From a plasmid, in sequence record NZ_CP084013.1: a DNA stretch of 64,000 bases; one strand, written 5' to 3'. A program made the position numbers and the translations under genes. A model generated the notes under the pieces. It did not search any database. It was not told the DNA's origin and saw nothing but the letters and a program-made list of their open reading frames with translations. This document shows, in pieces, positions 11,563 through 63,190 of this stretch (the stretch's first letter is position 1; each line of letters starts with the position of its first letter).

Positions 11563-11668
11563 TAAAAAAAAGTGTTACTATATGTTTGTGAAACAAAAAC
11601 ACGTAATCTCCCGACATCGGGGTAAACCCGAAAAGGAAGACACATACACGAGAAAGAAGAAACTCCCC

Positions 11669-15379: not shown

Positions 15380-16645
15380 CTAGAAGAGCTCGTTTTGTAT
15401 TGGTTTGCTGAGTCGTGCGTGGATCAGCTTGATATAGTCGGGATCGAGTTCGCTTGCCGTGCATTGCATGTGTTCGAGCAGACATGCTTCCAATGTGGTG
15501 CCGCTTCCGGCGAACGGCTCCAGCACGAGACCATCCGCCGGGGTGACGAGACGGACAAGCCAGCGCATGAGTTCGACCGGTTTGACTGTCGGATGGAGGA
15601 TGCCGTCGACTTTCGGCCGTTCAGACGGTGAGGCTTTCGGACAATACCTGAAAACCGGGTAGAATCGACTCGCGCCGCCCATATCGTCATATTCGGCGCC
15701 GGTATGGGTCATGCCCCAGCCGTCACCGGGTTTCGTGCTTGCGCGTGGTTTGCCTTTTCGACTGACGGTGACGCCGGACTGTCGGTCGAGTTCCTTGGCC
15801 GTGGACTGGTCGAACAGCATGTTCGGCGTGAAACGGGCGGCAGCCGTGTAGTCGGTGCGATTCGCTTTGTCCGCACCATATACATGGTTGTCTCTCGGCC
15901 CGGAGCCGAACCGTCCATGCTGGTTCTTGCCCTTCGACTCCGCCTCGTCCGCCGTGTTGCGGAATGGGACGCGGCATGCGTCGATATGCAACGCGCCTGT
16001 CCCGTGTCCGAGCAGATTGTGGGCGAGATTCCCGTCCAACGGCTTGCGGGCCAGACAGATGGGTTCGTGCGCGGGCTTCAGCTGGCTGTACCAGCCTTTG
16101 AACGGTTTCGCCGTCTCGGATCGCGTCGGCTCCACATCCTCGCGGCGTTCCCGGTCGATCATGAGCGTCGCATCCGAACCGTGTGGCATGCCGGACGCGT
16201 ACACCCAGTCGATCTGGTCGCGGATTTCGAAGCCCGCATCCTCGATCGCGCCGGCGAGCCGATGATAGGTGCGGCTCGCGGCGAACGCGGCAACATGCCC
16301 GCCCGGCTTCAGAACGCGCAGGATATCCTTCCACAGGTCCACGTCGAACGCGATGCCTGTGGAATCGAAGCTGCGGTTCATGAAACCGATCTCATACGGC
16401 GGGTCGGTGACGACGGAATCCACGCTGTTGTCCGGTAAGGAGGCGATGAGTCGGCGACAATCCCCCTTGTATAGGCGGAGGTTGTCGCCCAGATCTTCCA
16501 GCTCGTTGACACTCCCGTGGTTGAAACCACGGGATTCCTGCGAACTGGGCTTGCTTGGATTCAGACGATACGCCTGAATCCAGAGGCTTCCCATTTTTAG
16601 CGGGCTATCCCCGGTTGTCGGCCGGTTCCTCTTCTCTTTCGTCAT
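15380..16645 (-). CDS. DNA methyltransferase, beta-class N6-adenine/N4-cytosine (DPPY motif before FxGxG motif); N-terminal ~30 codons overlap the IS200/IS605 right end
   Basis: Motif IV TDPPYEIGF precedes motif I LVLEPFAGSGTT (beta permutation, PF01555-like). Start codon overlaps tnpB stop (ATGA). No restriction endonuclease gene adjacent. Downstream AT-rich region 15230-15370. Confidence 0.8.
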   Translation of the reverse strand: MTKEKRNRPTTGDSPLKMGSLWIQAYRLNPSKPSSQESRGFNHGSVNELEDLGDNLRLYKGDCRRLIASLPDNSVDSVVTDPPYEIGFMNRSFDSTGIAFDVDLWKDILRVLKPGGHVAAFAASRTYHRLAGAIEDAGFEIRDQIDWVYASGMPHGSDATLMIDRERREDVEPTRSETAKPFKGWYSQLKPAHEPICLARKPLDGNLAHNLLGHGTGALHIDACRVPFRNTADEAESKGKNQHGRFGSGPRDNHVYGADKANRTDYTAAARFTPNMLFDQSTAKELDRQSGVTVSRKGKPRASTKPGDGWGMTHTGAEYDDMGGASRFYPVFRYCPKASPSERPKVDGILHPTVKPVELMRWLVRLVTPADGLVLEPFAGSGTTLEACLLEHMQCTASELDPDYIKLIHARLSKPIQNELF

Positions 16646-17814
16646 GCTTCTTCCCGGCTGAGCCGCAATGCCTCGTCGCGGATGTTCAACGCGGCGTTCA
16701 CGTCCCTGTCATGCCGGATATGGCAGTTTTCGCAGGTCCATTCGCGTTCGGACAGCCGCAACTCCTTGTACTTGTGCCCGCAGTCGTGGCAGAGTTTGGA
16801 ACTCGGGTAGAACCTGTCCACTTGGACGAGGGTGCGACCATACCATTCCGCCTTGTGGGAGAGCTTGGCCACGAGGCCGCTCCACCCGTCGCGGAGTATG
16901 GAACGGTTCATCGCGCGTTTGCGTGACTGGCCGTTGCGCATGGGTCTGCCTTCGGCGTCCAGCCTCTTGCGTGCCTTCCGTGTCATGTTCCGTACCATCA
17001 GGGTCTCCATGCCGATGAATTGGTTCTCTTCTATCAGCCTGTGGGACAGTTGGTGCTGGAAGTTATCGCGGTAGTGGCGGAGCTTGGCGTACGCCTTGGC
17101 TACGATCGCCCTCTGCTTGCGGTAGTTGTTCGACCCTTTCGTTCTGTGGGACAGTTTGCGCTGCTCCCATCTGACGTCCTCCTCCAATCGGCGCAGCCGG
17201 TTCGGATAGTCGATTTTCTCGCCGGTGGACAATGTGAGGAGATTCTTGACACCCAAGTCGATGCCGATACGGCCTTCGGCCCGCGTTTTCGGCTGGATGT
17301 CCACGTCGAACAGGAGCACGAGATAGTATGTGCGGTTCTCGCGTTTCACCGTCCAGCTGGACAATGATTCGATTGGATGGCGGAGCCGGTCGCGTTTGCG
17401 GATGCGCACCGAGCCGAGCTTCTTGGTCAACGGGTACCGGTTGCCGTTCATACGGCGTATCGGCATGGTGTTGCGGAACGATTGGATGCTGTCGTTCCTT
17501 GAGGCGAAACGGGGACGATGCTTCTCGTACTGGGCTTTGCGGAAGTACGCGGATTGCGCCTTGCGGAAGTCCATGATGGCGTTGCTCAACGCGTTCGACG
17601 GGATCGGACTGTCCTTGAGCCATCCGTTCGCGTTCTTCATGCCGGTCACGTTCGGATATTCGGGTTTCGGGTTCGTTTCCTTGTCGTACGTGTTGAACGC
17701 CTCGACCTGCTGGTTGTAGGCGAAACGCCTGTCGCCGAAGCATCGTTCCAGCAACGCGGCTTGGGTCTTGGACGGCGTGAACGGTATGCGCTGCGCCACC
17801 TTGCGCATGGTCAT
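16642..17814 (-). CDS. tnpB: TnpB (IS605 OrfB; RuvC-like + zinc-finger, OMEGA-type RNA-guided nuclease family)
   Basis: 390 aa. C-terminal CHDCGH...CENCH zinc finger followed by DRDVNAALNI, characteristic of TnpB/OrfB. Confidence 0.9.
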   Translation of the reverse strand: MTMRKVAQRIPFTPSKTQAALLERCFGDRRFAYNQQVEAFNTYDKETNPKPEYPNVTGMKNANGWLKDSPIPSNALSNAIMDFRKAQSAYFRKAQYEKHRPRFASRNDSIQSFRNTMPIRRMNGNRYPLTKKLGSVRIRKRDRLRHPIESLSSWTVKRENRTYYLVLLFDVDIQPKTRAEGRIGIDLGVKNLLTLSTGEKIDYPNRLRRLEEDVRWEQRKLSHRTKGSNNYRKQRAIVAKAYAKLRHYRDNFQHQLSHRLIEENQFIGMETLMVRNMTRKARKRLDAEGRPMRNGQSRKRAMNRSILRDGWSGLVAKLSHKAEWYGRTLVQVDRFYPSSKLCHDCGHKYKELRLSEREWTCENCHIRHDRDVNAALNIRDEALRLSREEA

Positions 17815-43241: not shown

Positions 43242-43835
43242 ATGTTGGTAAAGGAATGGGCCAGACTGGAAGGATTGCATCCGCAGACCGTGTGGAAATG
43301 GTGCCGTCAGGGCACCATGCCCGTTCCTGTGGAACAGACGCCGACCGGCATGTGGCTCATCCACGACCCGAAATACGAGACCATGCCGCAATCGAAAAGC
43401 ATGGAACCCCGCACCGTCTGCTATGCGCGAGTATCCAGCGGCGACCAAAAGAACGACCTGCAACGTCAAGCCGACCGGTTGAAGGCGTTCGCTCTGAACA
43501 TGGGTGTCGAGCGGCCGGAGGTGGTCATGGAGACCGGTTCAGGCATGGACGACAGGCGGCGCAAGCTCAACCGGCTATTGTCCGACCCGACCGTGGGCAC
43601 GCTGATCGTGGAGCACAGGGACAGGCTCGCCCGCATGAACGCGGGACTGGTGGAGAGCGCGTTGAAGGCGCAGGGACGCCGAATCATCGTGGTGGACGAC
43701 ACGGAGCTGGACGACGATCTGGTGCGCGACATGACCGAGGTGCTGACCTCGTTCTGCGCGAGACTGTACGGACGCCGCGCGGCCAAGCATCGTGCGGAGA
43801 AGGCGTTGGAGGCGATGCGCGATGAGCGCGTATGA
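43242..43835 (+). CDS. tnpA: IS607-type serine recombinase transposase (MerR-like HTH + resolvase catalytic domain)
   Basis: N-terminal HTH (MLVKEWARLEGLHPQTVWKWCRQG). Catalytic CYARVSSGDQ serine motif. 197 aa. Confidence 0.85.
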   Translation: MLVKEWARLEGLHPQTVWKWCRQGTMPVPVEQTPTGMWLIHDPKYETMPQSKSMEPRTVCYARVSSGDQKNDLQRQADRLKAFALNMGVERPEVVMETGSGMDDRRRKLNRLLSDPTVGTLIVEHRDRLARMNAGLVESALKAQGRRIIVVDDTELDDDLVRDMTEVLTSFCARLYGRRAAKHRAEKALEAMRDERV

Positions 43836-45144
43836 GGCCGTTAGGATTCGGCTCGACCCAACCCCACGGCAGACACGGCTGTTGGAATCCCATGCGGGCG
43901 GCGCGCGTTTCGCATACAATCTGATGCTCGCTCACGTCCAGCGCCAAATCTCCTTGGGTGAGAAACCGGACTGGACGTTGTACGCGATGCGCCGCTGGTG
44001 GAACGAGTGGAAGGACGAAATCGCCCCGTGGTGGCGGGAGAACAGCAAGGAGGCGTACAACAGCGCGTTTGAATGGCTGTCCCAAGCGTTGAGGAACTGG
44101 TCGGACAGCAGGAAGGGCAGGCGCGCGGGCCGCAGGGTGGGCTGGCCGAAATACAAGTCGAAACGCTCCGGTGTCCCGCGTTTCGCATACACGACCGGCA
44201 GCTTCGGCCTTATCGAGGACGACCCGAAGGCGTTGAAACTGCCACGCATCGGACGCGTGCACTGCATGGAGAACGCCACCGAACGCGTCCACGGCAGACG
44301 AATCGTGCGCATGACCGTCAGTCGCCATGCGGGCTTCTGGTATGCGGCCCTCACCGTCGAACGTCCCACCGAAAGCGTTCCCGCGAAAAACAGAAAACAG
44401 AAGAACCGTAATCGTCAGGTCGGCGTGGATTTGGGCGTCAGGACCCTCGCCACCCTCTCGGATGGCACCACGTTCCCCAATCCACGCAACTACGTCCGCA
44501 TGCAACGGAAACTCCGCCACGCCCAACAGGCGTTAAGCCGCCGCGACAGGGGCATGAGCCATGGATGCGGGTCGAAACGGTACAACAGGGCGTTGGGGCG
44601 CGTGCGCCGAATCCACGCCCGCATAGCCGCCCAACGAGCCGACAACATCAGCAAGCTCACCACGTGGCTCGCCGACAATTATTCCGACATCAGCATCGAA
44701 GACCTCAACGTGCAAGGCATGAGCCATAACAGGAGGCTTGCCAAACACATACTGGACGCGGACTTCCACGAGTTCCGCCGCCAACTGGAATACAAGACCG
44801 CACGCGCCGGCACGAGGCTCCATGTCATCGACCGCTGGTATCCAAGCTCGAAGACCTGTTCGAACTGCGGGACGGTGAAAGCCAAACTGCCCCTGTCCGA
44901 ACGCGTCTACCATTGCGGCAAGTGCGGACTTGTCATCGACCGTGATGTGAACGCGGCCATCAACATCCAAGTCGCCGGGAGTGCCCCGGAGACGTTAAAC
45001 GCGCGTGGAGGAAGCGTAAGACAGACCCGCCTTGAGTGCGGGACAATGCGGCATCCGGCGAAACGCGAACCAAGCGGCGGCGACAGTCGCGTGAGACTTG
45101 GAGCTGGTCTCGGCAACGAGGCCATGCAGATGACTCCGCTCTAG
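43825..45144 (+). CDS. tnpB: TnpB (OrfB) of the IS607 element
   Basis: Start taken at MSAYEAVRIRLDPTPRQ. C-terminal CSNCG...CGKCG zinc finger + DRDVNAAINI. Confidence 0.85.
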   Translation, partial: SAYEAVRIRLDPTPRQTRLLESHAGGARFAYNLMLAHVQRQISLGEKPDWTLYAMRRWWNEWKDEIAPWWRENSKEAYNSAFEWLSQALRNWSDSRKGRRAGRRVGWPKYKSKRSGVPRFAYTTGSFGLIEDDPKALKLPRIGRVHCMENATERVHGRRIVRMTVSRHAGFWYAALTVERPTESVPAKNRKQKNRNRQVGVDLGVRTLATLSDGTTFPNPRNYVRMQRKLRHAQQALSRRDRGMSHGCGSKRYNRALGRVRRIHARIAAQRADNISKLTTWLADNYSDISIEDLNVQGMSHNRRLAKHILDADFHEFRRQLEYKTARAGTRLHVIDRWYPSSKTCSNCGTVKAKLPLSERVYHCGKCGLVIDRDVNAAINIQVAGSAPETLNARGGSVRQTRLECGTMRHPAKREPSGGDSRVRLGAGLGNEAMQMTPL

Positions 45145-48130: not shown

Positions 48131-49342
48131 TTGGAGGTGAAGCATATGGTGGAACTCGCATTGACCATGAAAGTCAAGCTCACGACCAACAAACACGAGT
48201 CTGAAGCCCTTAACCGCCTATGTGACAATTACACCTCCTGTTGCAACGAAGTATCCGATTGGATTGGAGAACACCACACCCTCAGCCAGAGGAAAATCAA
48301 CGAGGCTGTCTATCACCCGCTACGCGACAAATACGGACTGTTGGCCCAGATGACCCAATCTTCGATACGGCGGGTCATCGCGTCCTACAAGGCAATTCAC
48401 TCGCGCATGGAACGCCGGAACGGAGAAAACCCCAAGAGAAAGAGGACGGCATACTATTCCACCAGACCAAAGTACTCGTCCGCCGGTGTTGACCTGCTGT
48501 GGAACCGCGACTACTCCTATTCGCCCATGACGGGAATGTTCAGCCTTCCCGTCATGGGCGGGAGAATCAAAGTGAAAGCCCAATGGAAGGGAACCCCGGA
48601 CGAATACCGTACGGCACGTTTCGGTACCGCCCGACTGATATCGAAACGAGGCAAATGGTACCTGCATATTCCCATCATCCTACAGGTTCCCGACCCAACC
48701 CCAAGCCCCAAAAACATAGTGGGCGTGGACTTGGGCATCCGAATGCTCGCCACCAGTTATGACGGCGAAACCACCGTCTTCCAACATGGAGGGGAGGTGA
48801 AAAGCAAGCGCGGCAAATACAAGCGGCTCCGTCAACAGTTGCAGAAACGCGGCACCCGAAGCGCTCGCAGACGACTCAAGACCATAGGCGACAGAGAAAA
48901 CCGTTGGATGACTGATGTGAACCATCAGGCGTCTAAGGCACTCGTCAACCATTACGACAGGGATACGATGTTCGTTCTCGAAGACCTTACGGGAATCCGC
49001 AATGCGACCGAACAGGTCAGGGTCAAGGACAGGTATGTTCAGGTCAGTTGGAGTTTCCACCAATTCCGGCAGATGGTCGAATACAAGGCGAAACGCAACG
49101 GTCAGAAAGTCGTGTTCGTTGACCCGGCCTACACAAGCCAGACCTGCCCGAAATGCGGGAAAATCCGCAAAGCCAACCGTGACAAGAAACGCCACCTGTA
49201 TGTCTGCCGCAACTGCGGATACCGGTCCAACGACGACCGGATAGCCGCGATGAACCTGCGACACAAAGGCTACGACCTTTTGAGCTCGCAGTACGCCGCC
49301 AGCATGACTGACGGCGTAAGGGTGCAGTCAACCACCCTATGA
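48131..49342 (+). CDS. tnpB: Stand-alone TnpB (IS1341/IS605 OrfB-type RNA-guided nuclease homolog); no tnpA adjacent
   Basis: 403 aa. RuvC-like core. C-terminal CPKCG...CRNCG zinc finger + DDRIAAMNL. AT-rich upstream region. Confidence 0.85.
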   Translation: MEVKHMVELALTMKVKLTTNKHESEALNRLCDNYTSCCNEVSDWIGEHHTLSQRKINEAVYHPLRDKYGLLAQMTQSSIRRVIASYKAIHSRMERRNGENPKRKRTAYYSTRPKYSSAGVDLLWNRDYSYSPMTGMFSLPVMGGRIKVKAQWKGTPDEYRTARFGTARLISKRGKWYLHIPIILQVPDPTPSPKNIVGVDLGIRMLATSYDGETTVFQHGGEVKSKRGKYKRLRQQLQKRGTRSARRRLKTIGDRENRWMTDVNHQASKALVNHYDRDTMFVLEDLTGIRNATEQVRVKDRYVQVSWSFHQFRQMVEYKAKRNGQKVVFVDPAYTSQTCPKCGKIRKANRDKKRHLYVCRNCGYRSNDDRIAAMNLRHKGYDLLSSQYAASMTDGVRVQSTTL

Positions 49343-49939: not shown

Positions 49940-49949
49940 GAAAAAAAAA
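49940..49949 (+). repeat. A10 homopolymer 5 nt upstream of the ATG of the 49955 leader-family gene
   Basis: cgAAAAAAAAAAcaacATG seen directly. Confidence 0.5.
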
Positions 49950-49954
49950 ACAAC

Positions 49955-52456: not shown

Positions 52457-52900
52457 TCAGTCCTGATTTTTTTGAAGCCAATCGACTAGATCGGCAGCGG
52501 TCAGATCAGACAGCCTTCTATTGGTTCTCAATTGTCGCGCAACTTCATAGTCGTGAAGAAAATCGCTGATTTCGGACGTGGTCCAATCCTTGTTTCTCAA
52601 ATGTCGTTTCAATCGTTCCAAAGGCCAGTAAATGCGATGAGCCTCCAACATCAGCTCTTCAGCGTCTCTTCTATCTGTATCCCATTCAAAGACGAGAAGA
52701 TTGATTGCCTTCTGCCTGTCAATACCTAATTCAGCGAATACACGAGCAATATGCTTCCTTTCCTGTTTCCGTTCGAAAGCTAACGCCTGATTGACTTCCT
52801 CATTGACATTGTCTATTGCATTATCCTGGGCCGCATCTAATGCGACTGAACCTATTTGACTAATGGTGTCTACGATTAGATTTTTGTCTACCACTGTCAC
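52457..52900 (-). CDS. Hypothetical protein (147 aa) translationally coupled (GTGA overlap) to the 3' end of the MmeI-family RM gene
   Basis: GTG start overlapping the RM enzyme stop. Lower GC. No recognisable motif. Confidence 0.45.
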   Translation of the reverse strand: MTVVDKNLIVDTISQIGSVALDAAQDNAIDNVNEEVNQALAFERKQERKHIARVFAELGIDRQKAINLLVFEWDTDRRDAEELMLEAHRIYWPLERLKRHLRNKDWTTSEISDFLHDYEVARQLRTNRRLSDLTAADLVDWLQKNQD

Positions 52901-55686
52901 ACCTCACTGCTACCTGTCATACGAGTGTATGACTTAAACAACACTTGCAGGCGCGTATCGTCATCGTCCTTCAGCCATTTCCCCGCGCCGAACGCCACGT
53001 CCGCGATCTTGTCCAGCTCCAGGTGGGCGGCGCGTAGGTCGGTCGGCATGTAGTCGGGGTCGTACAGGTCTGCCAAAGACTGGCCGGGATGGTTCGCTCG
53101 CGCCGCCAGCACGTTCCTGCCGGCCTCGATCAATGCGGCGCGGGTGTCGTCGTCGAGGGCGGGCAGAGGCAGGTTGTTCCAAACCACCGTGTTGCTGAAA
53201 CGGTAGTCTGATTTCAGTCGTCCGCCGACCGCCGCCTGCCAGACAATGAACATACGCGATTCGATGACCGCGAACGCCAGTCCGTCCGGATCGGGGCTGG
53301 TATAGCAAAGGTCGCTCACGATTACATTGGGTTCCAACGACAGGCAGGTGGCGTACTCACGACGGCCGCTGAATACTTTGGGAAGGCAGAGAAAGCGACC
53401 GGTAGGCTGGTGGTTCTCGTCGAACAGCCATGAGGTCGTGGCCTTCGCACGGGTAGGGGCCTTCTTCGAGGCGAGTCTCATCTCCCTGACGGCATCCACG
53501 CGTCGACGAAGGAATGCGGAGTTCCTGATTTCGGCGGGCTCCACATCGACAAGCCACAGGCACCAGCGTTCGATCCCGTTGATGAGTTCGCGCGACCCTC
53601 GGAACGGCCTCACGTATTTTGCCGCGATTGGGTCGGATATCGCTTGGTCGTGCTCCTCCCGATTGTCGAGGATGAGGTTGCCGCCGTCCGTGGGCTGGGA
53701 TCCGCGTCCGGCCGGAGACAGTTCCGAACTGAGCGGTTTCATTCTTTTCTCCACGAACACGTTCGGATCGTCGAGCAGGTATCCGTTGATGTTGTCCACG
53801 GTGCGGGCGGCTGGTTCCCCGTCAATGTCCGTGTATTCGAACAGGATCGGCGCCGGTTCCGACGTTTTGTCCATGCCGACGATGACGACATGCACGTGCG
53901 CGTTGTCGGTGGACTGGGCGTCCCAGGCGAACGTGCGGTGCGCGAACCGGATGCGCCATCCCTCGTCGAACAGGGGTCGGAACAGGCTGGGCACGGGCTG
54001 GCCCTGACTGATGCTGTTCGTGGACACGAACGCGAACGCCGCCCCCGGTTTGGCCAGGTATTCACTGGCCTTGCGATGCCAGCCTGTCGCGTAGTCGAGA
54101 TACCCGTCATAGCCTTTGTCCCATATAAGCCTCATGTCCTCTTTTTGACTGTCGCTCATGAGGTATTGTCCGATGAACGGCGGGTTGCCCATCACATAGT
54201 CGCAGTGGTCGCCGGGTAATAGTTCGTTCCAGTCGAGGCGCAGCGCGTTGCCTTGCCGGATGTGTGCCGTATCGGTGAACGGGAGTCGGGGCAGGCCGCT
54301 GATGGTCGACTCGGTGTCGTCCAACGCCTGCTGTTCCGCGATCCAGAGCGCGGTTCTTGCTACGGCGCATGCGAATCCGTTGATTTCGATGCCATGGAAG
54401 TGGCTGATGCTGACTTTGACCGGGTTGATGTCGTCGCCGAGGTCGAGGGCGAGTTGTCCGTCCTTGTCCAAATCGGCGAGGATCCGATTCTCGATGCGGC
54501 GCAATTCCAGATACGTTTCGGTCAGGAAGTTGCCGGAACCGCAGGCGGGGTCGAGGAACCGGAGGCCGGCGATTTTGTCATGCAACTTGTTGAGCGCGTT
54601 GGTGCGGGAACCGCCTGCGACCGGCCTGGCCTCCGCCCCCTCGAGTTCGGCTTTCAAACCGTCGAGGAACAACGGGTCGATGAGCCTGTGGATGTTCTTG
54701 ACGGACGTGTAGTGCATGCCGCCTTTGCGTCGTTCGTCATGGCTGAGGGTTTCCTCCATGAGGGAACCGAAGATGACGGGGCTGATGCCGCTCCAGTCGA
54801 AGCCTTCGCTGATTTCCAGCAGAGCGTCACGCAGTTCCTCGGTTAAAGGTGGTACGTCGATTTGGTCGGCGAACAGGCCACCGTCCACGTAGGGGAACGC
54901 TTTCAACGGTTCCGGCAGGTAACGACGCCGCTTCTCGATTGGTGTGTCCAACGCTTCGAACAGGTCGTACAGGTCTTCGCCCAGACGTTCGGGCGTGGAT
55001 GCCGCCACATAGTCGCGGAGCGCGTCCGGTTTGAACAGGTTCGCGTCCTCCGCATACAGACAGAACACGAGGCGCACGGTCAGCATCGCCAGCGCGTCAT
55101 GTTCAGACGGGTCATCGGGATGTTCGAAGCATTTCGCCAGGGAATCATGCAGTCTGGCGACTCGTTGGCCTGCTTTGACGGACAGTTTCTCCTGTTGGAC
55201 GACACGGGAGTTCTCGTGCGCGAACAGACGGCCAATCTCGTTGATATGCTCCGGCAGTTCCGCAAGCGTGAACTCCGATTGCGGCGTACGGGCCAAAGGG
55301 TCGGCTTCCAGATCGTAGAGGCGGAACAATCCGAAATTGCAGGTGATGAGCACGGACGGGTGTTCCGATGGCGGCAGGCTGTCGGAATACCGTTTCGCCT
55401 GTTCCACCGGGGTGACCATGGTTCCCTGACGTGGTTCCGGCTTGTCCAAATCCACGCCGAGGCTCTTCTGCTCGACGAGCACACGGGCTTGGATCATCAG
55501 CGCGTCGATGAACCCGTCCAATGCGGTGCGCCGTTCGAACCAGAGCGTCTGCCTGTCGCTCGTGTTCGGGATGAGCAGCACCTTGTCCAACAGGTCACGC
55601 CAGTACTGTTGGGTCTCGGATTTCTCGTCGCCTCGTCCCGCCCATGATTCGGCGAACCTGGCCGCCCTGCTCTTCAGATCATCCAT
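52897..55686 (-). CDS. MmeI-family Type IIL (IIG) single-chain restriction-modification enzyme (N-terminal endonuclease + gamma-class N6-adenine MTase + TRD)
   Basis: Colinear motif-by-motif match to MmeI: LITCNFGLFRLYDL, VRLVFCLYAED, AFPYVDGGLF, WSGISPVIFGSL, GMHYTSVKNIHRLIDPLFLD, FLDPACGSGNFL (motif I), GNPPFIG (motif IV), FAHRTFAW, PTDGGNL, RWCLWL, LYDPDYMPTDLRAAH. Start taken at MDDLKSRAARF (track ORF extends 97 codons further upstream through Arg-rich junk). Confidence 0.9.
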   Translation of the reverse strand: MDDLKSRAARFAESWAGRGDEKSETQQYWRDLLDKVLLIPNTSDRQTLWFERRTALDGFIDALMIQARVLVEQKSLGVDLDKPEPRQGTMVTPVEQAKRYSDSLPPSEHPSVLITCNFGLFRLYDLEADPLARTPQSEFTLAELPEHINEIGRLFAHENSRVVQQEKLSVKAGQRVARLHDSLAKCFEHPDDPSEHDALAMLTVRLVFCLYAEDANLFKPDALRDYVAASTPERLGEDLYDLFEALDTPIEKRRRYLPEPLKAFPYVDGGLFADQIDVPPLTEELRDALLEISEGFDWSGISPVIFGSLMEETLSHDERRKGGMHYTSVKNIHRLIDPLFLDGLKAELEGAEARPVAGGSRTNALNKLHDKIAGLRFLDPACGSGNFLTETYLELRRIENRILADLDKDGQLALDLGDDINPVKVSISHFHGIEINGFACAVARTALWIAEQQALDDTESTISGLPRLPFTDTAHIRQGNALRLDWNELLPGDHCDYVMGNPPFIGQYLMSDSQKEDMRLIWDKGYDGYLDYATGWHRKASEYLAKPGAAFAFVSTNSISQGQPVPSLFRPLFDEGWRIRFAHRTFAWDAQSTDNAHVHVVIVGMDKTSEPAPILFEYTDIDGEPAARTVDNINGYLLDDPNVFVEKRMKPLSSELSPAGRGSQPTDGGNLILDNREEHDQAISDPIAAKYVRPFRGSRELINGIERWCLWLVDVEPAEIRNSAFLRRRVDAVREMRLASKKAPTRAKATTSWLFDENHQPTGRFLCLPKVFSGRREYATCLSLEPNVIVSDLCYTSPDPDGLAFAVIESRMFIVWQAAVGGRLKSDYRFSNTVVWNNLPLPALDDDTRAALIEAGRNVLAARANHPGQSLADLYDPDYMPTDLRAAHLELDKIADVAFGAGKWLKDDDDTRLQVLFKSYTRMTGSSEV

Positions 55687-55711
55687 GATTCCCAATGGTA
55701 TCCGGTTTCCC

Positions 55712-56302
55712 TCATGCCGGTCGGATATCGACCACATCATGCGGCGTGATCGTCCATAGGCAGGCCTGGATCCACCGGTCCGGCAGCCGTTTCGGATCCG
55801 CGATCGCGTTCGCCCTGTACTGGAGCCGTTTCTTTTCGGCCAGATCGTCCCAATGCTCGTCCAGCCACCGGTCGTACTCCTCAGGCGGCCATGTGCCGGC
55901 ATCCAGCGGGGCGCACGGACACCGGTTGATGACGCAATGGTATTGGTCGAAATCCGTGCAAAGCACCCGGTTCTCATCGACCCGCAGATGCAGGAGCTCC
56001 AACCCGTCGTACTGGTTGCGGAAGCCCGGATACCGTCGGTCGGGACGCGTATGCGCCCTGCCTTTCGAATCGACCCAGCGCGCCCACGCCCACAAGGGGG
56101 CCGCGTCCGGGTCCGGACGCGGCATGCCCTTGTGCTCCATTTCGCCCATCATCCACTCATAGGCGGGGCTGATGCCGTCCCACCAGTCCGAATCCCCGTC
56201 CTCGGCAATGGATTTCGCGCGCGCGGCGCTCCATGATGGAGTGTACGAACCGGAACGGTCGAACGCGGCCCTGACATCCGGCCACCGCTGGAACGAATAC
56301 AA
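55712..56302 (-). CDS. Hypothetical Trp-rich protein (196 aa) immediately upstream of the RM gene in the same operon
   Basis: Clean ORF, 26-nt gap to RM start. No recognisable motif. Confidence 0.45.
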   Translation of the reverse strand: MYSFQRWPDVRAAFDRSGSYTPSWSAARAKSIAEDGDSDWWDGISPAYEWMMGEMEHKGMPRPDPDAAPLWAWARWVDSKGRAHTRPDRRYPGFRNQYDGLELLHLRVDENRVLCTDFDQYHCVINRCPCAPLDAGTWPPEEYDRWLDEHWDDLAEKKRLQYRANAIADPKRLPDRWIQACLWTITPHDVVDIRPA

Positions 56303-57604: not shown

Positions 57605-58255
57605 CATTCTTGGCTTCCTCCATCCAGCAGATCGCGCAGCACCCACAGGGCGAACCGGGCGCCGTTCAGCGCATCCTCGGGAAGGCCGCACGGATATGAG
57701 ACCTCGACCCCCGCATGCACGTTCCCGTCCGCATCCACGCCATCCAGCATGGTGACGGCCAGGGTCAGGCATCGCAATCCGCGTTCGGGCGTCGCGTCCC
57801 CGCGGACGAGCAGCCAGACTGGCGGCATCGCCATCGGCTTGCCGGGATCGAACGAACGCGCCTCGTCGGCGACGATACCCGGTCCGAACGGTTCCCGCAG
57901 TTCCAGCCCGTACGTGATGTTCCCGGCACGATATTCGAGCTTGATGCGGGCCGTCGTGCCGGACGGTTCGGATGTTTCGGATTCGACGGCGTACAGCCGG
58001 TAGCGGATGGAATCAAGCATTATCCCCATGGTAGTCCGGGTGCGCGGTTCCTGTTCTCGTGGGGGCCGTCGCGTGCCGTCCGCGTTGAACTGGGCGAGCT
58101 GCCCGATCGCATTGCCCGTGTTCTGCAACGCGCCATTGAGTAGACGCACACGCTCCCCCCATATCGTTGGTCTCCAACGCGAGACGCAGCTGGCCGATGG
58201 CCGCGTTCACCTGATTGCGGTACGTGTAGTTATTGTTCTCGGATGGCGCCGTCAT
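57601..58255 (-). pseudogene. Hypothetical gene with internal repeat, split by +1 frameshift at a G6 homopolymer (58153-58160 region)
   Basis: Frame A: MTAPSENNNYTYRNQVNAAIGQLRLALETNDMGG... Frame B (GTG start just after the G-run): ..LLNGALQNTGNAIGQLAQFNADG...MLDSIRYRLYAVESE... Removing one G fuses them into a ~218-aa ORF with a duplicated NxxNAIGQL segment. Confidence 0.4.
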
Positions 58256-58295
58256 GCCATCCGCCTTCCTTTCGTCCTTAGAACTGATATGCGTT

Positions 58296-58865
58296 TCAGC
58301 GAATCAGCTCCAGAAGCCCTCGGTTCTCGTTCCTGCCGAACCGGTGCAGTCTTGAATATTCCTTGAGCGCGTGTTCGAGCCGGCCGGGCTCAGCCCAGTA
58401 TCGTTCCAGCCATGCGCGGCTTTTCACCTGCTTCATGCCCAGTTCTCTTTTGCAATAGTCGGAGGGCTTCAGCCGTTTGGAGCCGTTCGTGTATTTGCCG
58501 TACATGCCCTCGTTGATGATGACCAGCATTTCGATTTCGGGATGGGTTCGCAGGTTCACGACCTCGGCCGCATGCTCGTAGCCTCGAGGTATGCGCAGTA
58601 CATCCGAGTCCGAGTCGACTATACGTATGATCAGCAGCGGGTGTTTGCCGTATGACATGTTGAGGAACCGGTCGAGCATCCGCTTCGATTCCTTGCGGGT
58701 GAAATACCATGTGCCTCGCAGCTGATTAGGCACGATAAGCTCGTTCGGCACGGTCAGTTCGCCGCGTTCGATAAGGGTCGTGAGTATGTACTGTTCGGCC
58801 ACGCCCTCGCAGACGAACAGCACATACTGGCCTTCCGCATTAAGCATGCACGTACCTTTCCGCAT
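58296..58865 (-). CDS. TOPRIM-domain (OLD-family / DUF4435-like) nuclease; AriB-like component
   Basis: VLFVCEGVAEQYIL (TOPRIM ExG) ... LLIIRIVDSDSD (DxD). ~183 aa from MLNAEGQ. Overlaps the upstream ATPase gene. Confidence 0.6.
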   Translation of the reverse strand: MRKGTCMLNAEGQYVLFVCEGVAEQYILTTLIERGELTVPNELIVPNQLRGTWYFTRKESKRMLDRFLNMSYGKHPLLIIRIVDSDSDVLRIPRGYEHAAEVVNLRTHPEIEMLVIINEGMYGKYTNGSKRLKPSDYCKRELGMKQVKSRAWLERYWAEPGRLEHALKEYSRLHRFGRNENRGLLELIR

Positions 58866-60021
58866 AATCCTGGAGGGCGCGGACGGCCGCGTATGAGGGC
58901 GCGGTACCGGGTACCCGGTTGGCGAAGAAGGAAACGCTCTTCTTCAAATCGGTGCGGCCCAGATATGCGCCCAGATTCCGGAGGGCGAAGCCTTTTCCAT
59001 CGCGGACGGCGAACCATATCGAATCCTTGCGGGTGAAATGATCCAGCAGCTCCGGATAGTGGGTGGAGAACAGGAGCGTGGCCCCATGCGGGTTCGTGAC
59101 CGGGGAGGCGAACAGGTCCATGATGGCGAATACGAGCTGCTTGTTGATGCTGTTCTCCAGTTCGTCCACAATCAGATAGCCACCCGCGCGCAGTGTCTCC
59201 AATGCTCGGCCGACCAGTGCGCCGCCTCTCAGGGTACCGGATGAGACCATGTTGACCAGCGAGTTCGGGGTGACCTCCCGCTCCTTGCCCTCATTGCGGA
59301 ATTTCAGATGGATTCCGTCCTTGTCGTAGTCGAGACGTTCGATGCTGGCATCGAACAGCGTCACGACGGGGCGGGCCGGGCTGACGGTGAGCGTCGGGGA
59401 CACCGGCAGCAGTTCGGTCGCGATGTCGGTGTCCTTGACGAAGGCCCCGCAAATACTCCGGTCGGGCGGCAGATACCGTTTCGCGTCGGCGGACAGTTCG
59501 CCCCGGACGCCGGGCCTGCCCACGTTGCGGGATGAGAGCACGGTCCACCGTTCCGGATCCAACGTGCCGTTCATGGCGGAGGCAAGCATTTTCTTGCTGA
59601 GCTTGCCATGGTGGATGCTCAGGGTCTCACGGATGAACCTCAACGGCGTGCGACCCTCGCCTGTCCGCTCGAGCAGGCTGTCGATGAGATGGAAGCGACC
59701 GTCCTGTTCGAACAGCGCGCGCACCCCGATCCGGTCGTCCATGGTGTCGTACAAAGGGAACAGGTCGGGGTTCAACGATCCCAGCGACATGCCGCCGGCG
59801 ACGGCGAGGGCGAGTTCGGTGACCCTCAACGCGGTGGTCTTGCCGGAGGCGTTGATGCCGGCGACGCCGATGGCCGTGTTGATGCTGATGTTGCGTGCGG
59901 CGCCGTCGAGCATGTGCGTGTATCCGGGTTCCCTTACGGCGTCGATGGCGTACAGGTCCATCCTGCATTCATGGTTTTCGTATAGGCGCAGGCCGCTGAT
60001 GGCGTAGCTCAACAACCTCAT
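58840..60021 (-). CDS. ABC-type/AAA_21-like ATPase (OLD N-terminal-domain-like; AriA-like)
   Basis: Walker A GINASGKTTALR, Walker B LIVDELENSINK, H-loop ATLLFSTHYPELL. Start taken at MRLLSYAISGL. Immediately upstream of the TOPRIM gene. Confidence 0.65.
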   Translation of the reverse strand: MRLLSYAISGLRLYENHECRMDLYAIDAVREPGYTHMLDGAARNISINTAIGVAGINASGKTTALRVTELALAVAGGMSLGSLNPDLFPLYDTMDDRIGVRALFEQDGRFHLIDSLLERTGEGRTPLRFIRETLSIHHGKLSKKMLASAMNGTLDPERWTVLSSRNVGRPGVRGELSADAKRYLPPDRSICGAFVKDTDIATELLPVSPTLTVSPARPVVTLFDASIERLDYDKDGIHLKFRNEGKEREVTPNSLVNMVSSGTLRGGALVGRALETLRAGGYLIVDELENSINKQLVFAIMDLFASPVTNPHGATLLFSTHYPELLDHFTRKDSIWFAVRDGKGFALRNLGAYLGRTDLKKSVSFFANRVPGTAPSYAAVRALQDYAERYVHA

Positions 60022-61147
60022 GCTTTCTCCCTTGTAAACGTTTTTTCTGTATACATAGGCTATCACTGAATGGAGACCGTCGATACCCGGAAACCGTCAG
60101 ATCGCCTCCCCCCCCCCTGACTCCCAGGCAGCCGGGCGTCGCCGTCCGTTTCGGGTCGGGCATGAACTGAGCCGGATTATTCCCGATCGCCGTCAGCAAT
60201 GCGTCCATGTCGAGCGCGTACAGGCCGCTGTTCGACTGCGGGTTCAGCTCGATCACATGCGGCCGCCCGGCATCATCCAGATACAGGTCCATCACGTATG
60301 GGCCTTCGACTTCGCCGCGTATCGCATGCGCCGCCTCGTGCGCGAACGCCTCATACAACCGTGCGATGTCGGGATGCGATTCGATGCGCCCGCTGTTGCG
60401 CGTCTCCTCCATGCGCGGATCATACCGGTCACCCCGATTGTCGGCGGGCGTGAACCGTTCGATGCAGCCGGCGCCGCACACCGGTTTCCCGCCTATCACC
60501 TGCATCCGGTATTCGTAGCGCATGCGCGCCTTTTGCTGGACGAGCACCGCGTCCGGCTCGCCCTCGAACAGTGCGAGATCGTAGCCGGCCCACCGCCAGG
60601 CGGCGAACGGGATATGCTCCGGCTTCCCGCCATACTCGTCCGTCTGCATGAACGTGCCGTCCGGGTCGATGAACGCGAGCGGCAGGCGTTTCTCCCTGAG
60701 CATGAACTTGGCGACCACGCCCGAACCGGGATGCCGGTCGAGCATGCCCCGCGCCGCCACATCGATCGCATCCCCGTCGCAGGCGACGGATCGCGCGTCG
60801 CGCCCCAGAAACGGGCGCAGCGAGGGCATGAGATCCCACCGGTCGACGTTCGAGGCGGGCAACGTCAGCTGATCCATATACGGCCTGATTCTCACCACGC
60901 CGTAATGGGCTAGCGTCATCGGATCCGGCCCCCCGTACGATCGGCCGGCCACGCGCACATGCGGGTCCGGGAGGATACGTGCCGCGGCCTCCAGGCGCGC
61001 CGCCTGTTCGCGCCAATCCTCCGGATCCCCGTCGCCCGGCACAACCTCGCCGACGTATCGTCCCCATGCGGCGCGATACGCTTCCGGCGCGTCCATCACG
61101 TCGGACGGGCGTTCCGTGGGGATGATGTCGATAAGCCAGCCGGTCAA
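59969..61147 (-). CDS. ATP-grasp-like enzyme (C-terminal ~45 aa after the G10 tract look non-genuine)
   Basis: ..GPYVMDLYLDDAGRPHVIELNPQSNSGLYALD.. resembles the ATP-grasp C-terminal lobe. Upstream KFMLREKRLPLAFIDPDG... 4-nt overlap with the upstream paralog. Confidence 0.45.
   Translation of the reverse strand: MTGWLIDIIPTERPSDVMDAPEAYRAAWGRYVGEVVPGDGDPEDWREQAARLEAAARILPDPHVRVAGRSYGGPDPMTLAHYGVVRIRPYMDQLTLPASNVDRWDLMPSLRPFLGRDARSVACDGDAIDVAARGMLDRHPGSGVVAKFMLREKRLPLAFIDPDGTFMQTDEYGGKPEHIPFAAWRWAGYDLALFEGEPDAVLVQQKARMRYEYRMQVIGGKPVCGAGCIERFTPADNRGDRYDPRMEETRNSGRIESHPDIARLYEAFAHEAAHAIRGEVEGPYVMDLYLDDAGRPHVIELNPQSNSGLYALDMDALLTAIGNNPAQFMPDPKRTATPGCLGVRGGGGDLTVSGYRRSPFSDSLCIQKKRLQGRKHEVVELRHQRPAPIRKP
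60108..60117. repeat. C10/G10 homopolymer tract located in the 3' end of the ATP-grasp-like ORF, ~50-100 nt upstream of the ABC ATPase start
   Basis: cgcctCCCCCCCCCCtga seen directly. Length-variable tracts of this kind are slipped-strand mispairing hot spots. Confidence 0.6.
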
Positions 61148-62568
61148 TGTTCTCCCTCCAGTTCGGGCATCCAGTTCTCCACCATCGGCCGACGCTTTCC
61201 TTTCGGCACCGTCCGTTCGTAGAAGGTGCTGCGTTCGGCGGGCGCCATGTCGATGAGCCAGTAGTCGTCGCCGTCGCGCATGATGTCAAGCGACCATTGG
61301 CCCGCCAGGTCGAGACCGGGCAGCAATCCGGCCACGTGCGTGGCGACCAGGTCCTTCGTGGCCTCGTATTCGCGCATGAGCGACGGTTCTCGCAGCTTGT
61401 AGGTGACCGCGTCGTGCCGCATGTGCGGGTTGTCGGAATCCGGCCAGTCGCGGAAACGATGGTTCATCACCTTGGGATCCCAGTACGGGTGGATGCCCAG
61501 CAGCTCATCCGTGTCGCAGTCGATGAAGCAACGGTATTCGCATCGCAGCGGCAGGCCCATGTAGATGGTCGGCAGGTCATGCGTATCGGGGATGTATTCG
61601 CGGACCACCATCTCGTTCGTCGTGGAAACCCCGTACGTGGCAGGTTGGCTCAACGGTCCGGCCATTTCGACCGCTTGGGATTGGAGGTACAACAGGTATT
61701 CGCCGATCTGCATGACCTCGTGCGGTTCGGTGACGTGCGCGTTGCGGAAATCATACTTGTTGCTGAACGTGCCGGTCTTGAGGAAATAAGATTCGTCCGG
61801 TTTCAGGCGGAACGCGGCCTGCGCCCACCGATCCACCACATCCAATGTGGCGGCGGTCAGCGACTCGTATTCGACGCGCGACAATTGCAACAGGGTCAAC
61901 GGCGCTTTGGCTATCGTGGTCTTCGGGATGCGGAAGAACGTCTTGCCTTCGTTCGCCTTGACCAATGCGGGCAGCCAATGGCCTATGCTCGCCGGGTTCA
62001 TGTCGAGCATTCGGTACATGACCGGATCCAGGTCGAGCAGGTCGAGGCCGGTGCGGAACATGCCGTACGCCTCATGCCGTTGCCTCGCGGAACGTTTCGG
62101 ATCCGTGGCGCGCCGCCACATATCCAACAGGAGCGGATAGTTCACCGCATCAATCTGACGGTGGATGAGCTCGCCCGCCAACTGGGGGCGCTCCCCCGTC
62201 TGCAGGGCATTCACGTCCGATTCCGTCACATACTTTTCCGGGACGGGAGCCAATGCCGGAATCGTGGTCAGACGTTCCCCGTCGAACCGGATGACGCCTG
62301 TATCCGACAGCAGTTCGCGCACGATGCGCGCATCCAACGCCAACGCCTCGTCCGACAGCCCGTGTCCGGAACGGGATTCGACAACGGTCTTCGCGTCCGG
62401 ACCCAATGGTCCCGTGGGCGCATTCTTCCGGTCGAGCACGTTCGCATGGTAGGAGCGTTCGAACTCGCGCAATAGTCCGGGCGTGGTGCTGAGCATGGCG
62501 GCCGCCGTGTCCACGTCCAACGGTTGCGGCTTATCCGCGTGCAGCAGCCGGTCGAGAAAGCCGGTCAT
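61144..62568 (-). CDS. ATP-grasp-like enzyme, larger paralog (~475 aa)
   Basis: Start taken at MTGFLDRLLH. C-terminal ..WSLDIMRDGDDYWLIDMAPAERSTFYE.. parallels the motif of the downstream paralog. Confidence 0.45.
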   Translation of the reverse strand: MTGFLDRLLHADKPQPLDVDTAAAMLSTTPGLLREFERSYHANVLDRKNAPTGPLGPDAKTVVESRSGHGLSDEALALDARIVRELLSDTGVIRFDGERLTTIPALAPVPEKYVTESDVNALQTGERPQLAGELIHRQIDAVNYPLLLDMWRRATDPKRSARQRHEAYGMFRTGLDLLDLDPVMYRMLDMNPASIGHWLPALVKANEGKTFFRIPKTTIAKAPLTLLQLSRVEYESLTAATLDVVDRWAQAAFRLKPDESYFLKTGTFSNKYDFRNAHVTEPHEVMQIGEYLLYLQSQAVEMAGPLSQPATYGVSTTNEMVVREYIPDTHDLPTIYMGLPLRCEYRCFIDCDTDELLGIHPYWDPKVMNHRFRDWPDSDNPHMRHDAVTYKLREPSLMREYEATKDLVATHVAGLLPGLDLAGQWSLDIMRDGDDYWLIDMAPAERSTFYERTVPKGKRRPMVENWMPELEGEH

Positions 62569-63038
62569 GATTCCTCCAGATCCCTGATTTGTTGCTCCAG
62601 TTTCCCGCAGGTCTTCGCCTGACCCAACGCCTTGCGCAGCCGTGGCACCAGCTCCTCGCATGAAAGTTGCCGACTGTCCTGCGGTATCGCCTCCAACAGT
62701 TCCTGCAACGTGTCCAATCCGTCATCCAACAGGGCTTTCAAGGTATTCGTTTCCCGATTTCTCCTCAACACGTCGATCCACGCTTCGGCAAGGCGGCCGC
62801 CCTCGAACAGGCGTCCGCCATGCCATTTCGCAAACACCCTGCCTCCATCGAATGCGAGAATCGTACGTGTCCGGTCGTACCGTTCCACCGGCTCCCCGTT
62901 CATGTCCACGCGGCCCAGATACAATGCCGTCACATCATCGTCATCGGTGAACGACCAGACACGATAGTGCGGATCCTCGCGGCGCAACCGTTCCTCCGCC
63001 ATGCCGGCGAACCGGATTTCAGTATCGATTTTGTCCAT
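62565..63038 (-). CDS. Hypothetical protein (~157 aa), first gene of the ATP-grasp/ATPase/TOPRIM operon
   Basis: Start taken at MDKIDTEIRF. 4-nt overlap with the next gene. Confidence 0.4.
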   Translation of the reverse strand: MDKIDTEIRFAGMAEERLRREDPHYRVWSFTDDDDVTALYLGRVDMNGEPVERYDRTRTILAFDGGRVFAKWHGGRLFEGGRLAEAWIDVLRRNRETNTLKALLDDGLDTLQELLEAIPQDSRQLSCEELVPRLRKALGQAKTCGKLEQQIRDLEES

Positions 63039-63190
63039 CAGTTGTTCCTTTCCGCATCGGTTCCCGTATGCGTTCCACATTTCGATGCCGCCATCGGAAT
63101 GTTCCGGCTCTTCTCGGAAGGATGGTGGATATTACAAAATGGGTGTACATTTGTATACATATATGTATATATTCCTTTTGGAGGTTTGCG

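Follow-up and report, generated by a model that had tools for sequence, protein, structure and literature searches.

Gene content and layout of the stretch

The plasmid sequence NZ_CP084013.1 was analyzed over a window of 64,000 nt, and the present study concerns five consecutive open reading frames (ORFs) on the minus strand of 58296-63038 within it, denoted g1 to g5. The first gene, g1 (62565-63038), encodes a 157-aa hypothetical protein without a match in Pfam, PADLOC, NCBIfam or PHROGs. It is followed by g2 (61144-62568), which encodes a 474-aa protein, probably a Cdc123-like (R2K-clade) ATP-grasp enzyme, of a phage-associated family without a Pfam model, and by g3 (59969-61147), which starts with TTG and encodes an R2K-family ATP-grasp ligase in the form of a 392-aa G10 frameshift allele. 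The last two genes encode a 393-aa ABC-type ATPase resembling AbiLi (AAA_21; g4, 58840-60021) and a 183-aa small α/β protein with TOPRIM-like acidic residues, a presumed nuclease effector (g5, 58296-58847). A hypervariable run of G residues, G10 in the window, lies on the minus strand at 60108-60117 within the last codons of g3, and the minus-strand region 58222-60112, which consists of a leader, g4, g5 and a hairpin, is a cassette of ~1.9 kb that is either present or absent. The hairpin (58240-58263) has a GC-rich stem of 9 bp and is located 33 nt past the g5 stop, inside the cassette boundary. At the other end, an AT-rich divergent intergenic region (63039-63190) separates g1 from a Phd-YafQ pair and is the presumed promoter region.

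The original prediction, made from the sequence alone, had described these genes as one operon with overlaps of 4-26 nt. The five ORFs were confirmed at the predicted coordinates except for the start of g5, which is most likely 58847 (183 aa), as in database gene calls, and not 58865. With this start, the predicted range of overlaps holds for g1/g2 (4 nt, ATGA), g2/g3 (4 nt) and g4/g5 (8 nt, ATGCTTAA) but not for g3/g4, where the overlap is 53 nt and is present solely owing to the G10 allele. Ribosome-binding sites precede g1 (GGAAAGGA) and g4 (GGGAGA). A promoter and terminator scan gave no minus-strand promoter and neither an internal promoter nor an internal terminator in the five-gene stretch; the sole consensus promoter of the 63039-63190 region is on the plus strand (63144-63173), and we infer a minus-strand promoter in the same region. 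Since neither an internal promoter nor a terminator was found, the five genes are probably co-transcribed on this plasmid. The hairpin past g5 was detected on the plus strand and lacks a U-tail on the minus strand, and it may act as a terminator; it also overlaps the beginning of a small ORF that comes next (58013-58255). No Rfam family was matched between 56000 and 64000.

The ATPase and TOPRIM-like pair and the two ligases

The g4 sequence matched Pfam AAA_21 (1.5e-12), and its best match was PADLOC AbiLi (1.7e-27, 94 bits), which covered residues 3-358 and hence almost the full length, whereas the match to PADLOC AriA was weaker and partial (5e-13, residues 229-327). The ABC-ATPase and TOPRIM-like motifs that had been predicted for the last two genes can be read directly in the sequence: GINASGKTT, LIVDELE and FSTHY in g4, with Walker A, Walker B, signature and H-loop all intact, and FVCEG and IVDSDSD in g5. 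The g5 sequence itself had no match in Pfam, PADLOC, NCBIfam or PHROGs. A profile search with g5 collected 616 cluster representatives, which are stand-alone proteins of ~180 aa, and among 55 sampled members of this family there was no relevant Pfam match and a single match to PADLOC AbiLii (9e-5). As for AriB, a TOPRIM protein of the DUF4435 type, neither g5 nor the 55 relatives matched it in Pfam or PADLOC. The AlphaFold2 (AF2) model of g5 is confident, with a predicted local distance difference test (pLDDT) score of 94. In this model the invariant Glu14 is placed directly after strand 1, the invariant Asp78 of DSDSD directly after strand 3, and Glu104 and Glu106 after strand 4. Considering that this placement corresponds to the TOPRIM arrangement, g5 is likely a TOPRIM nuclease, as judged from its model. 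A Foldseek comparison of g5 with the PDB gave nothing significant, and PDB sequence searches with g2, g3, g4 and g5 gave nothing useful.

The pair had been predicted to have the AriA/AriB (PARIS) architecture. The split between an ATPase and a small TOPRIM-like protein stands, but by its profile matches g4-g5 is assigned to an AbiL/PARIS-type two-gene module in which the closest named system is AbiL, not PARIS. AbiL (AbiLi and AbiLii of Lactococcus) is likewise a two-gene operon, with the gene for an ABC/Rad50-like ATPase first and that for a small TOPRIM/OLD-like protein second (PMC13064643). The present pair differs from it in that g5 does not match AbiLii, that the g5 family has no Pfam or PADLOC model, and that the host is an actinobacterial megaplasmid. 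PARIS shares the split ABC ATPase and TOPRIM nuclease and the partial AriA match of g4, and differs in the lack of an AriB match for g5. In Class 1 and Class 2 OLD nucleases the ATPase and TOPRIM domains are in one polypeptide, and in Gabija the two domains are fused in GajA and accompanied by a helicase; here they are in two genes, with no helicase adjacent, and g4 and g5 are separate genes in every g4-family locus where both were found. AbiL has been grouped with PARIS, which has a split ABC ATPase and TOPRIM nuclease and a toxin-antitoxin-like logic, and in PARIS the ATPase sequesters its partner and senses, and the released TOPRIM protein cleaves nucleic acid (PMC13064643). By analogy, the g4 ATPase would hold g5 and sense a trigger, and g5, once released, would act as a nuclease toxin and cleave nucleic acid.

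The g4 homologue of the Bifidobacterium breve plasmid pMP7017, B7017_p0170, was given RecF/SMC matches in Table S2 of a transcriptome paper (PMC10832533), and g4 might accordingly be read as a RecF/SMC-like repair or partition ATPase of the plasmid. We regard this as very improbable, because AbiLi is the best specific match, no RecF or SMC family was reported in NCBIfam or Pfam, g4 is paired with a small TOPRIM-like gene in most loci, and it is missing from the sister megaplasmids CP146883 and CP143940. Nor does the pair belong to a housekeeping RecF/RecR family: no such family was reported for it in the Pfam and NCBIfam searches, and the genes form a plasmid-borne cassette that is present or absent. 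The same transcriptome paper mentions no ATP-grasp or Abi functions.

Both upstream enzymes had been taken for ATP-grasp proteins, and this is borne out for g3 and probably holds for g2. For g3, Pfam PF14243 (R2K_3) scored 30.8 bits, above its cutoff of 26.3 (E 3.9e-7), and Lys147, the EYR motif beginning at Glu212, and the ExN motif of Glu300 and Asn302 are invariant in 18 g3 homologues down to 27% identity. For g2, the model matched Cdc123 first, followed by many ATP-grasp enzymes. The sequences of g2 and 26 relatives matched no ATP-grasp, R2K or Cdc123 (D123) Pfam model; g2 did match phrog_12834 (2.4e-52), Lys264 and Lys271 are invariant, and its N-terminus carries an extra region of ~180 aa. 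The two ligases had further been called paralogous and fused, which had to be dropped: neither BLASTP nor a profile-profile comparison gave significant similarity between g2 and g3, and they are separate genes. From their matches, g2 and g3 are best described as two ATP-grasp ligases of the R2K clade, only very remotely related to each other, that come from mobile elements and phages and probably attach amino-acid or peptide tags to protein targets.

Burroughs et al. (2015) described operons of actinobacteria and firmicutes that contain two R2K genes (R2K.2 and R2K.3), in some cases together with an ADP-ribosylglycohydrolase gene; their Figure 2 contains a B. longum entry, and R2K ligases are predicted there to act in conflicts as protein-modifying enzymes used by mobile elements (PMC4431377). 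The pair studied here agrees with that description in that g3 is a Pfam R2K member, g2 appears Cdc123-like by fold and the two genes are linked. It differs in that it lies on a conjugative megaplasmid beside Lar and that g2 matches no R2K or D123 Pfam model. The supplements of the R2K paper and the pMP7017 transcriptome paper contain no entries for g1, g2, g3 or g5.

Linkage of the genes and the megaplasmid setting

To follow which genes travel together, we scanned with a g4 alignment, which gave 60 loci, and sought g2 and g3 neighbours within 8 kb by hidden Markov model (HMM) at an E value of 1e-5 or better. A g5 homologue is immediately downstream of g4 in most loci with g4 at 27-69% identity, over a GC content of 34-65%, and many distant g4-g5 loci are flanked left and right by opposite-strand genes. 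The distant loci, with g4 at 69% identity or less, had no g2 or g3 within the 8 kb, with the exceptions of L007, which was found in a separate search, and L113, which has the window's own junction. Conversely, g2-g3 are present and g4-g5 absent in four loci (L015, L018, L023 and L025) and in the B. longum plasmid CP146883. At the DNA level, L015, L018 and L023 match the window as far as 60112, which is within the G-run, and again from 58222, directly beyond the hairpin; these sharp edges define the cassette of ~1.9 kb. A stretch of 142 nt replaces the cassette in L015 and L023, and the cassette is also missing from the B. longum plasmids CP146883 and CP143940. Where both genes are complete, g4 varies little (97-100% identity) although the g3 genes beside it share only 83-91% identity with the window; near-identical g4 on diverged g3 backgrounds points to a recent spread of the cassette by recombination.

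The upstream genes are separable as well. The g1 region (window 63046-62577) is precisely deleted in L015, L023 and L026, and an allele of 44% identity takes its place in L005 and L024, so that g1 appears, from this comparison, as a dispensable, optional first gene. In the B. longum plasmid CP143940, g3 is present alone, without g1, g2, g4 or g5, and a scan of genome contigs with g3 gave four loci, none of which had g4-g5. The g2 family has 185 relatives in IMG/VR, and all 68 divergent loci examined lacked g3, g4 and g5; a lone g2-type gene occurs in a Staphylococcus SPbeta-like phage, Clostridium phage Maintenon, Streptococcus phage Javan420 and Fusobacterium phage phiFN37. In the two contexts examined, SPbeta-like and Maintenon, it is among early genes (SSB, primase, Lar-like).

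We therefore did not retain the five-gene linkage with ATP-grasp partners, which had been part of the original prediction: the modules are separable across relatives, and their adjacency appears coincidental. Our preferred reading, to which we give a probability of roughly 0.75, is that independent cargo modules came to lie side by side in this lineage, within the variable stretch between Lar and MmeI of a pMP7017-family megaplasmid. The autonomous AbiL/PARIS-type pair g4-g5 would be the first module, the R2K-clade ligases g2 and g3, of mobile-element and phage origin and predicted to tag proteins with amino acids or peptides, the second, and the dispensable small gene g1 the third; the five would be co-transcribed here, yet not form one conserved system.

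Two observations weigh against this reading. One is the arrangement itself, where five co-directional genes with 4-nt overlaps and no detected terminator or internal promoter make joint expression possible. The other is L007, which is one independent repeat of the linkage, with an R2K ligase ~1.4 kb upstream of a g4-g5-like pair. In this distant relative (L007 7778-9168) a g3-like gene (42%) comes first, next are a 140-aa gene and an ADP-ribosylglycohydrolase that is split in two (53 and 264 aa), and a g4-like (36%) and a g5-like gene (39%) complete the row. The five genes could accordingly be one defence system; by modifying one of its components or a target, the ligases would arm or regulate the ATPase-nuclease pair or do its sensing. 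The tight co-directional arrangement, the recurrence of g3, g4 and g5 together at ~40% identity in L007 and the conflict roles predicted for R2K ligases (PMC4431377) all speak for such a system. However, the distant g4-g5 loci without g2 or g3, the loci with g2-g3 and no g4-g5, the lone g3 of CP143940 and the lone g2 of phages do not fit it. Furthermore, L007 has another cargo gene in common with the megaplasmid family, and a common cargo hot spot explains its linkage at least as well as functional coupling does. Taken together, we consider a single five-gene system quite unlikely.

Several observations on individual neighbours of these genes can be added. The combination of a ligase and an ADP-ribosylglycohydrolase in L007 echoes the R2K association of Burroughs et al. 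A Lar-like gene is found within a few kb of the g2-type gene in the SPbeta-like locus L154 (4752-5798 and 9246-9434) and near g2 in pMP7017 (L156, 3130-3384), and the proximity of g2 and Lar in SPbeta-like phages and megaplasmids suggests a shared set of early-entry genes. In L001 (5747-9443) a g2 homologue (47%) comes directly after an RVT_1 reverse transcriptase and a D12 methyltransferase, and downstream of it are two unknown ~400-aa genes and then HSDR_N and SNIPE/T5orf172 genes, which resembles a defence island. A 492-aa insertion sequence (IS) element of the TnpB/OrfB type sits exactly at the g2 stop/g3 start in L017 (9428-11040), L018, L026 and CP146883 (50405-51865); the insertion alters the N-terminus of g3, which becomes MTGLAAQAPSFKTGVNG... 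and is shared with P0122 and P0128, the representatives of clusters with 1589 and 960 sequences, respectively.

As for the replicon, the window is assigned by homology to the pMP7017-family conjugative megaplasmids of Bifidobacterium. PLSDB matches of the window region and g5 to B. breve JCM 7017 pMP7017 and B. longum megaplasmids were at 91-95% identity with gene order kept, and the related plasmids considered were NZ_KM406416, NZ_CP146883, NZ_CP065396/8 and NZ_CP143940. A prophage origin, prompted by IMG/VR hits, was dropped in favour of the megaplasmid given these matches. Other genes on the window encode pilus (FctA/SpaA), CHAP, NlpC/P60, LPD28 and DNA methylase proteins. The gene order in pMP7017 is Lar (p0162), a hypothetical gene, the YafQ toxin-antitoxin pair, g1, g2, a 126-aa gene and g3, followed by the AAA ATPase (p0170), g5, a 67-aa gene, DUF3841 and MmeI (p0174). 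The 126-aa gene between g2 and g3 (pMP7017 135918-136298; L156 6345-6725) is one that the window lacks. The predicted flanking YafQ toxin-antitoxin pair and MmeI-like gene were confirmed via the annotations of relatives, as was the DUF3841 gene. In the window, the DUF3841 gene (55712-56302) is immediately upstream of the MmeI-like type IIL gene (52897-55977), and this adjacency is kept in four of four related plasmids examined (L005, L156, L157 and L158); DUF3841 may be a conserved partner of the MmeI-like restriction-modification enzyme. At least three TnpB (OrfB_IS605/Cas12f-like) genes are present in the window (16642-17814, 43242-45144 and 48131-49342), one of which adjoins a serine resolvase in an IS607-like arrangement. 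On comparison of these plasmids, the Lar-to-MmeI stretch of bifidobacterial megaplasmids emerges as a hot spot for the exchange of defence and counter-defence cargo.

The G-run at the g3/g4 junction

The predicted G10 tract (C10 on the plus strand) is present at 60108-60117 and is the sole G/C run of at least 8 in the window. The g4-g5 cassette has its left junction there, and the g4 ATG follows 87 nt downstream. An A10 homopolymer is found at 49941-49950, and the sole further run of at least 8 is A8 at 11564. Under an independent and identically distributed composition model, ~0.5 runs of at least 10 are expected in the window, so that G10 alone is not improbable; it is the length polymorphism among relatives that lifts it above chance. 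The run is far from invariant: in the sub-lineage with the window's junction AGGCGATCTGACGG, loci from independent assemblies have identical flanks and carry G6, G7, G8, G9 and G10. An interrupted tract, GGGGAGGGG, is found in L099, where the downstream flank differs by one base, and other sub-lineages including pMP7017 carry GGGAGGAG in place of the tract with the same cassette.

To compare the g3 products of these tract lengths, we simulated the G6-G10 alleles. The homologues of g3 end in ...CLGVR(G/E)xxx(I/V/F) at 348-350 aa, and a canonical g3 of ~349 aa would stop near 60097. In the simulation, G6 and G9 gave g3 of 348 and 349 aa with the stop 75 nt upstream of the g4 ATG, G8 gave 360 aa with the stop 41 nt upstream, and G7 and G10 gave 391 and 392 aa with the stop 53 nt downstream of the g4 ATG, overlapping g4. 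G10 is thus a +1 allele, in which g3 is 43 residues longer and the 53-nt g3/g4 overlap arises; by lengthening the tail, it would let g3 translation run across the g4 start. The full ATP-grasp domain is kept in every simulated allele, and only the g3 tail changes, with no on/off switching of g3.

Sequencing of G homopolymers is error-prone (PMC9187656), and G9 would restore the canonical ...GVRGGEAI end of g3, from which one could argue that G10 is a sequencing or assembly error and that the true sequence is G9. Such an error seems unlikely to us, considering that G10 is also found in an independent IMG/VR contig (L126), that 247 sequences cluster under the matching 392-aa protein, and 1589 under a G9 form, and that the length span of 6-10 exceeds typical one-base errors. 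Based on the cluster behind the 392-aa form, G10 is probably a real allele.

The spread of lengths also raises the question of function. In the same genus, G10/G11 tracts of B. breve pilus genes slip at high frequency and act as switches, and tract length in Bifidobacterium pilus genes varies between and within populations via replication slippage (PMC9187656). The present tract resembles those of the pili in being length-variable (G6-G10 here, G9-G12 in pili). By this precedent the G-run could be a functional phase-variation switch that tunes g4-g5 by translational coupling or occlusion, or that switches g3 tail isoforms, and it would agree with the coverage of all three frames by G6-G10 among identical-flank loci, with the number of sequences behind both the 392-aa and the G9 form, and with G7/G10 carrying g3 translation over the g4 ribosome-binding site and start while the other lengths stop short of them. 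On the other hand, the pilus tract switches the first gene of its operon on or off, whereas the tract here is 3' of the catalytic domain, so that no allele inactivates g3 and only its C-terminal tail and the distance to the g4 start are altered. In addition, pMP7017 and other sub-lineages keep the cassette with the interrupted tract GGGAGGAG, RNA folding of the g4 leader in its G6, G9 and G10 versions showed no advantage over shuffled sequences, and the tract is a recombination junction, which alone could explain its origin. A functional switch is therefore possible but doubtful in our view, and in the preferred reading the G-run is a homopolymer that is prone to slippage and lies at the junction where the cassette recombines. 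There is a slim chance of a stronger version, in which the G-run is a population-level switch for g3 ribosomes crossing the g4 start and sets the dose of the module, or the R2K ligases gate g4-g5, or both; such gating is hinted at because L007 is a second co-occurrence of g3, g4 and g5.

With the locus read as a juxtaposition of independent cargo modules, what is new is the AbiL/PARIS-like member, as the R2K ligase pair beside it was already noted in earlier literature (PMC4431377). The products of p0170 and p0171 of pMP7017 and their relatives can be re-annotated as an AbiL/PARIS-type module, the former having been RecF/SMC-like in earlier annotation. With it, small TOPRIM-like partners in about 600 clusters come into view as a family that current Pfam and PADLOC models miss, and a phage-borne Cdc123-like ATP-grasp family (g2) without a Pfam model is flagged. 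Current understanding is not overturned by these results, and the one mechanistic puzzle among them is the slippery G-run at the edge of the cassette, which, if the stronger version were true, would govern how much of a toxin-antitoxin-like defence module is made from the conjugative megaplasmid of a gut commensal.

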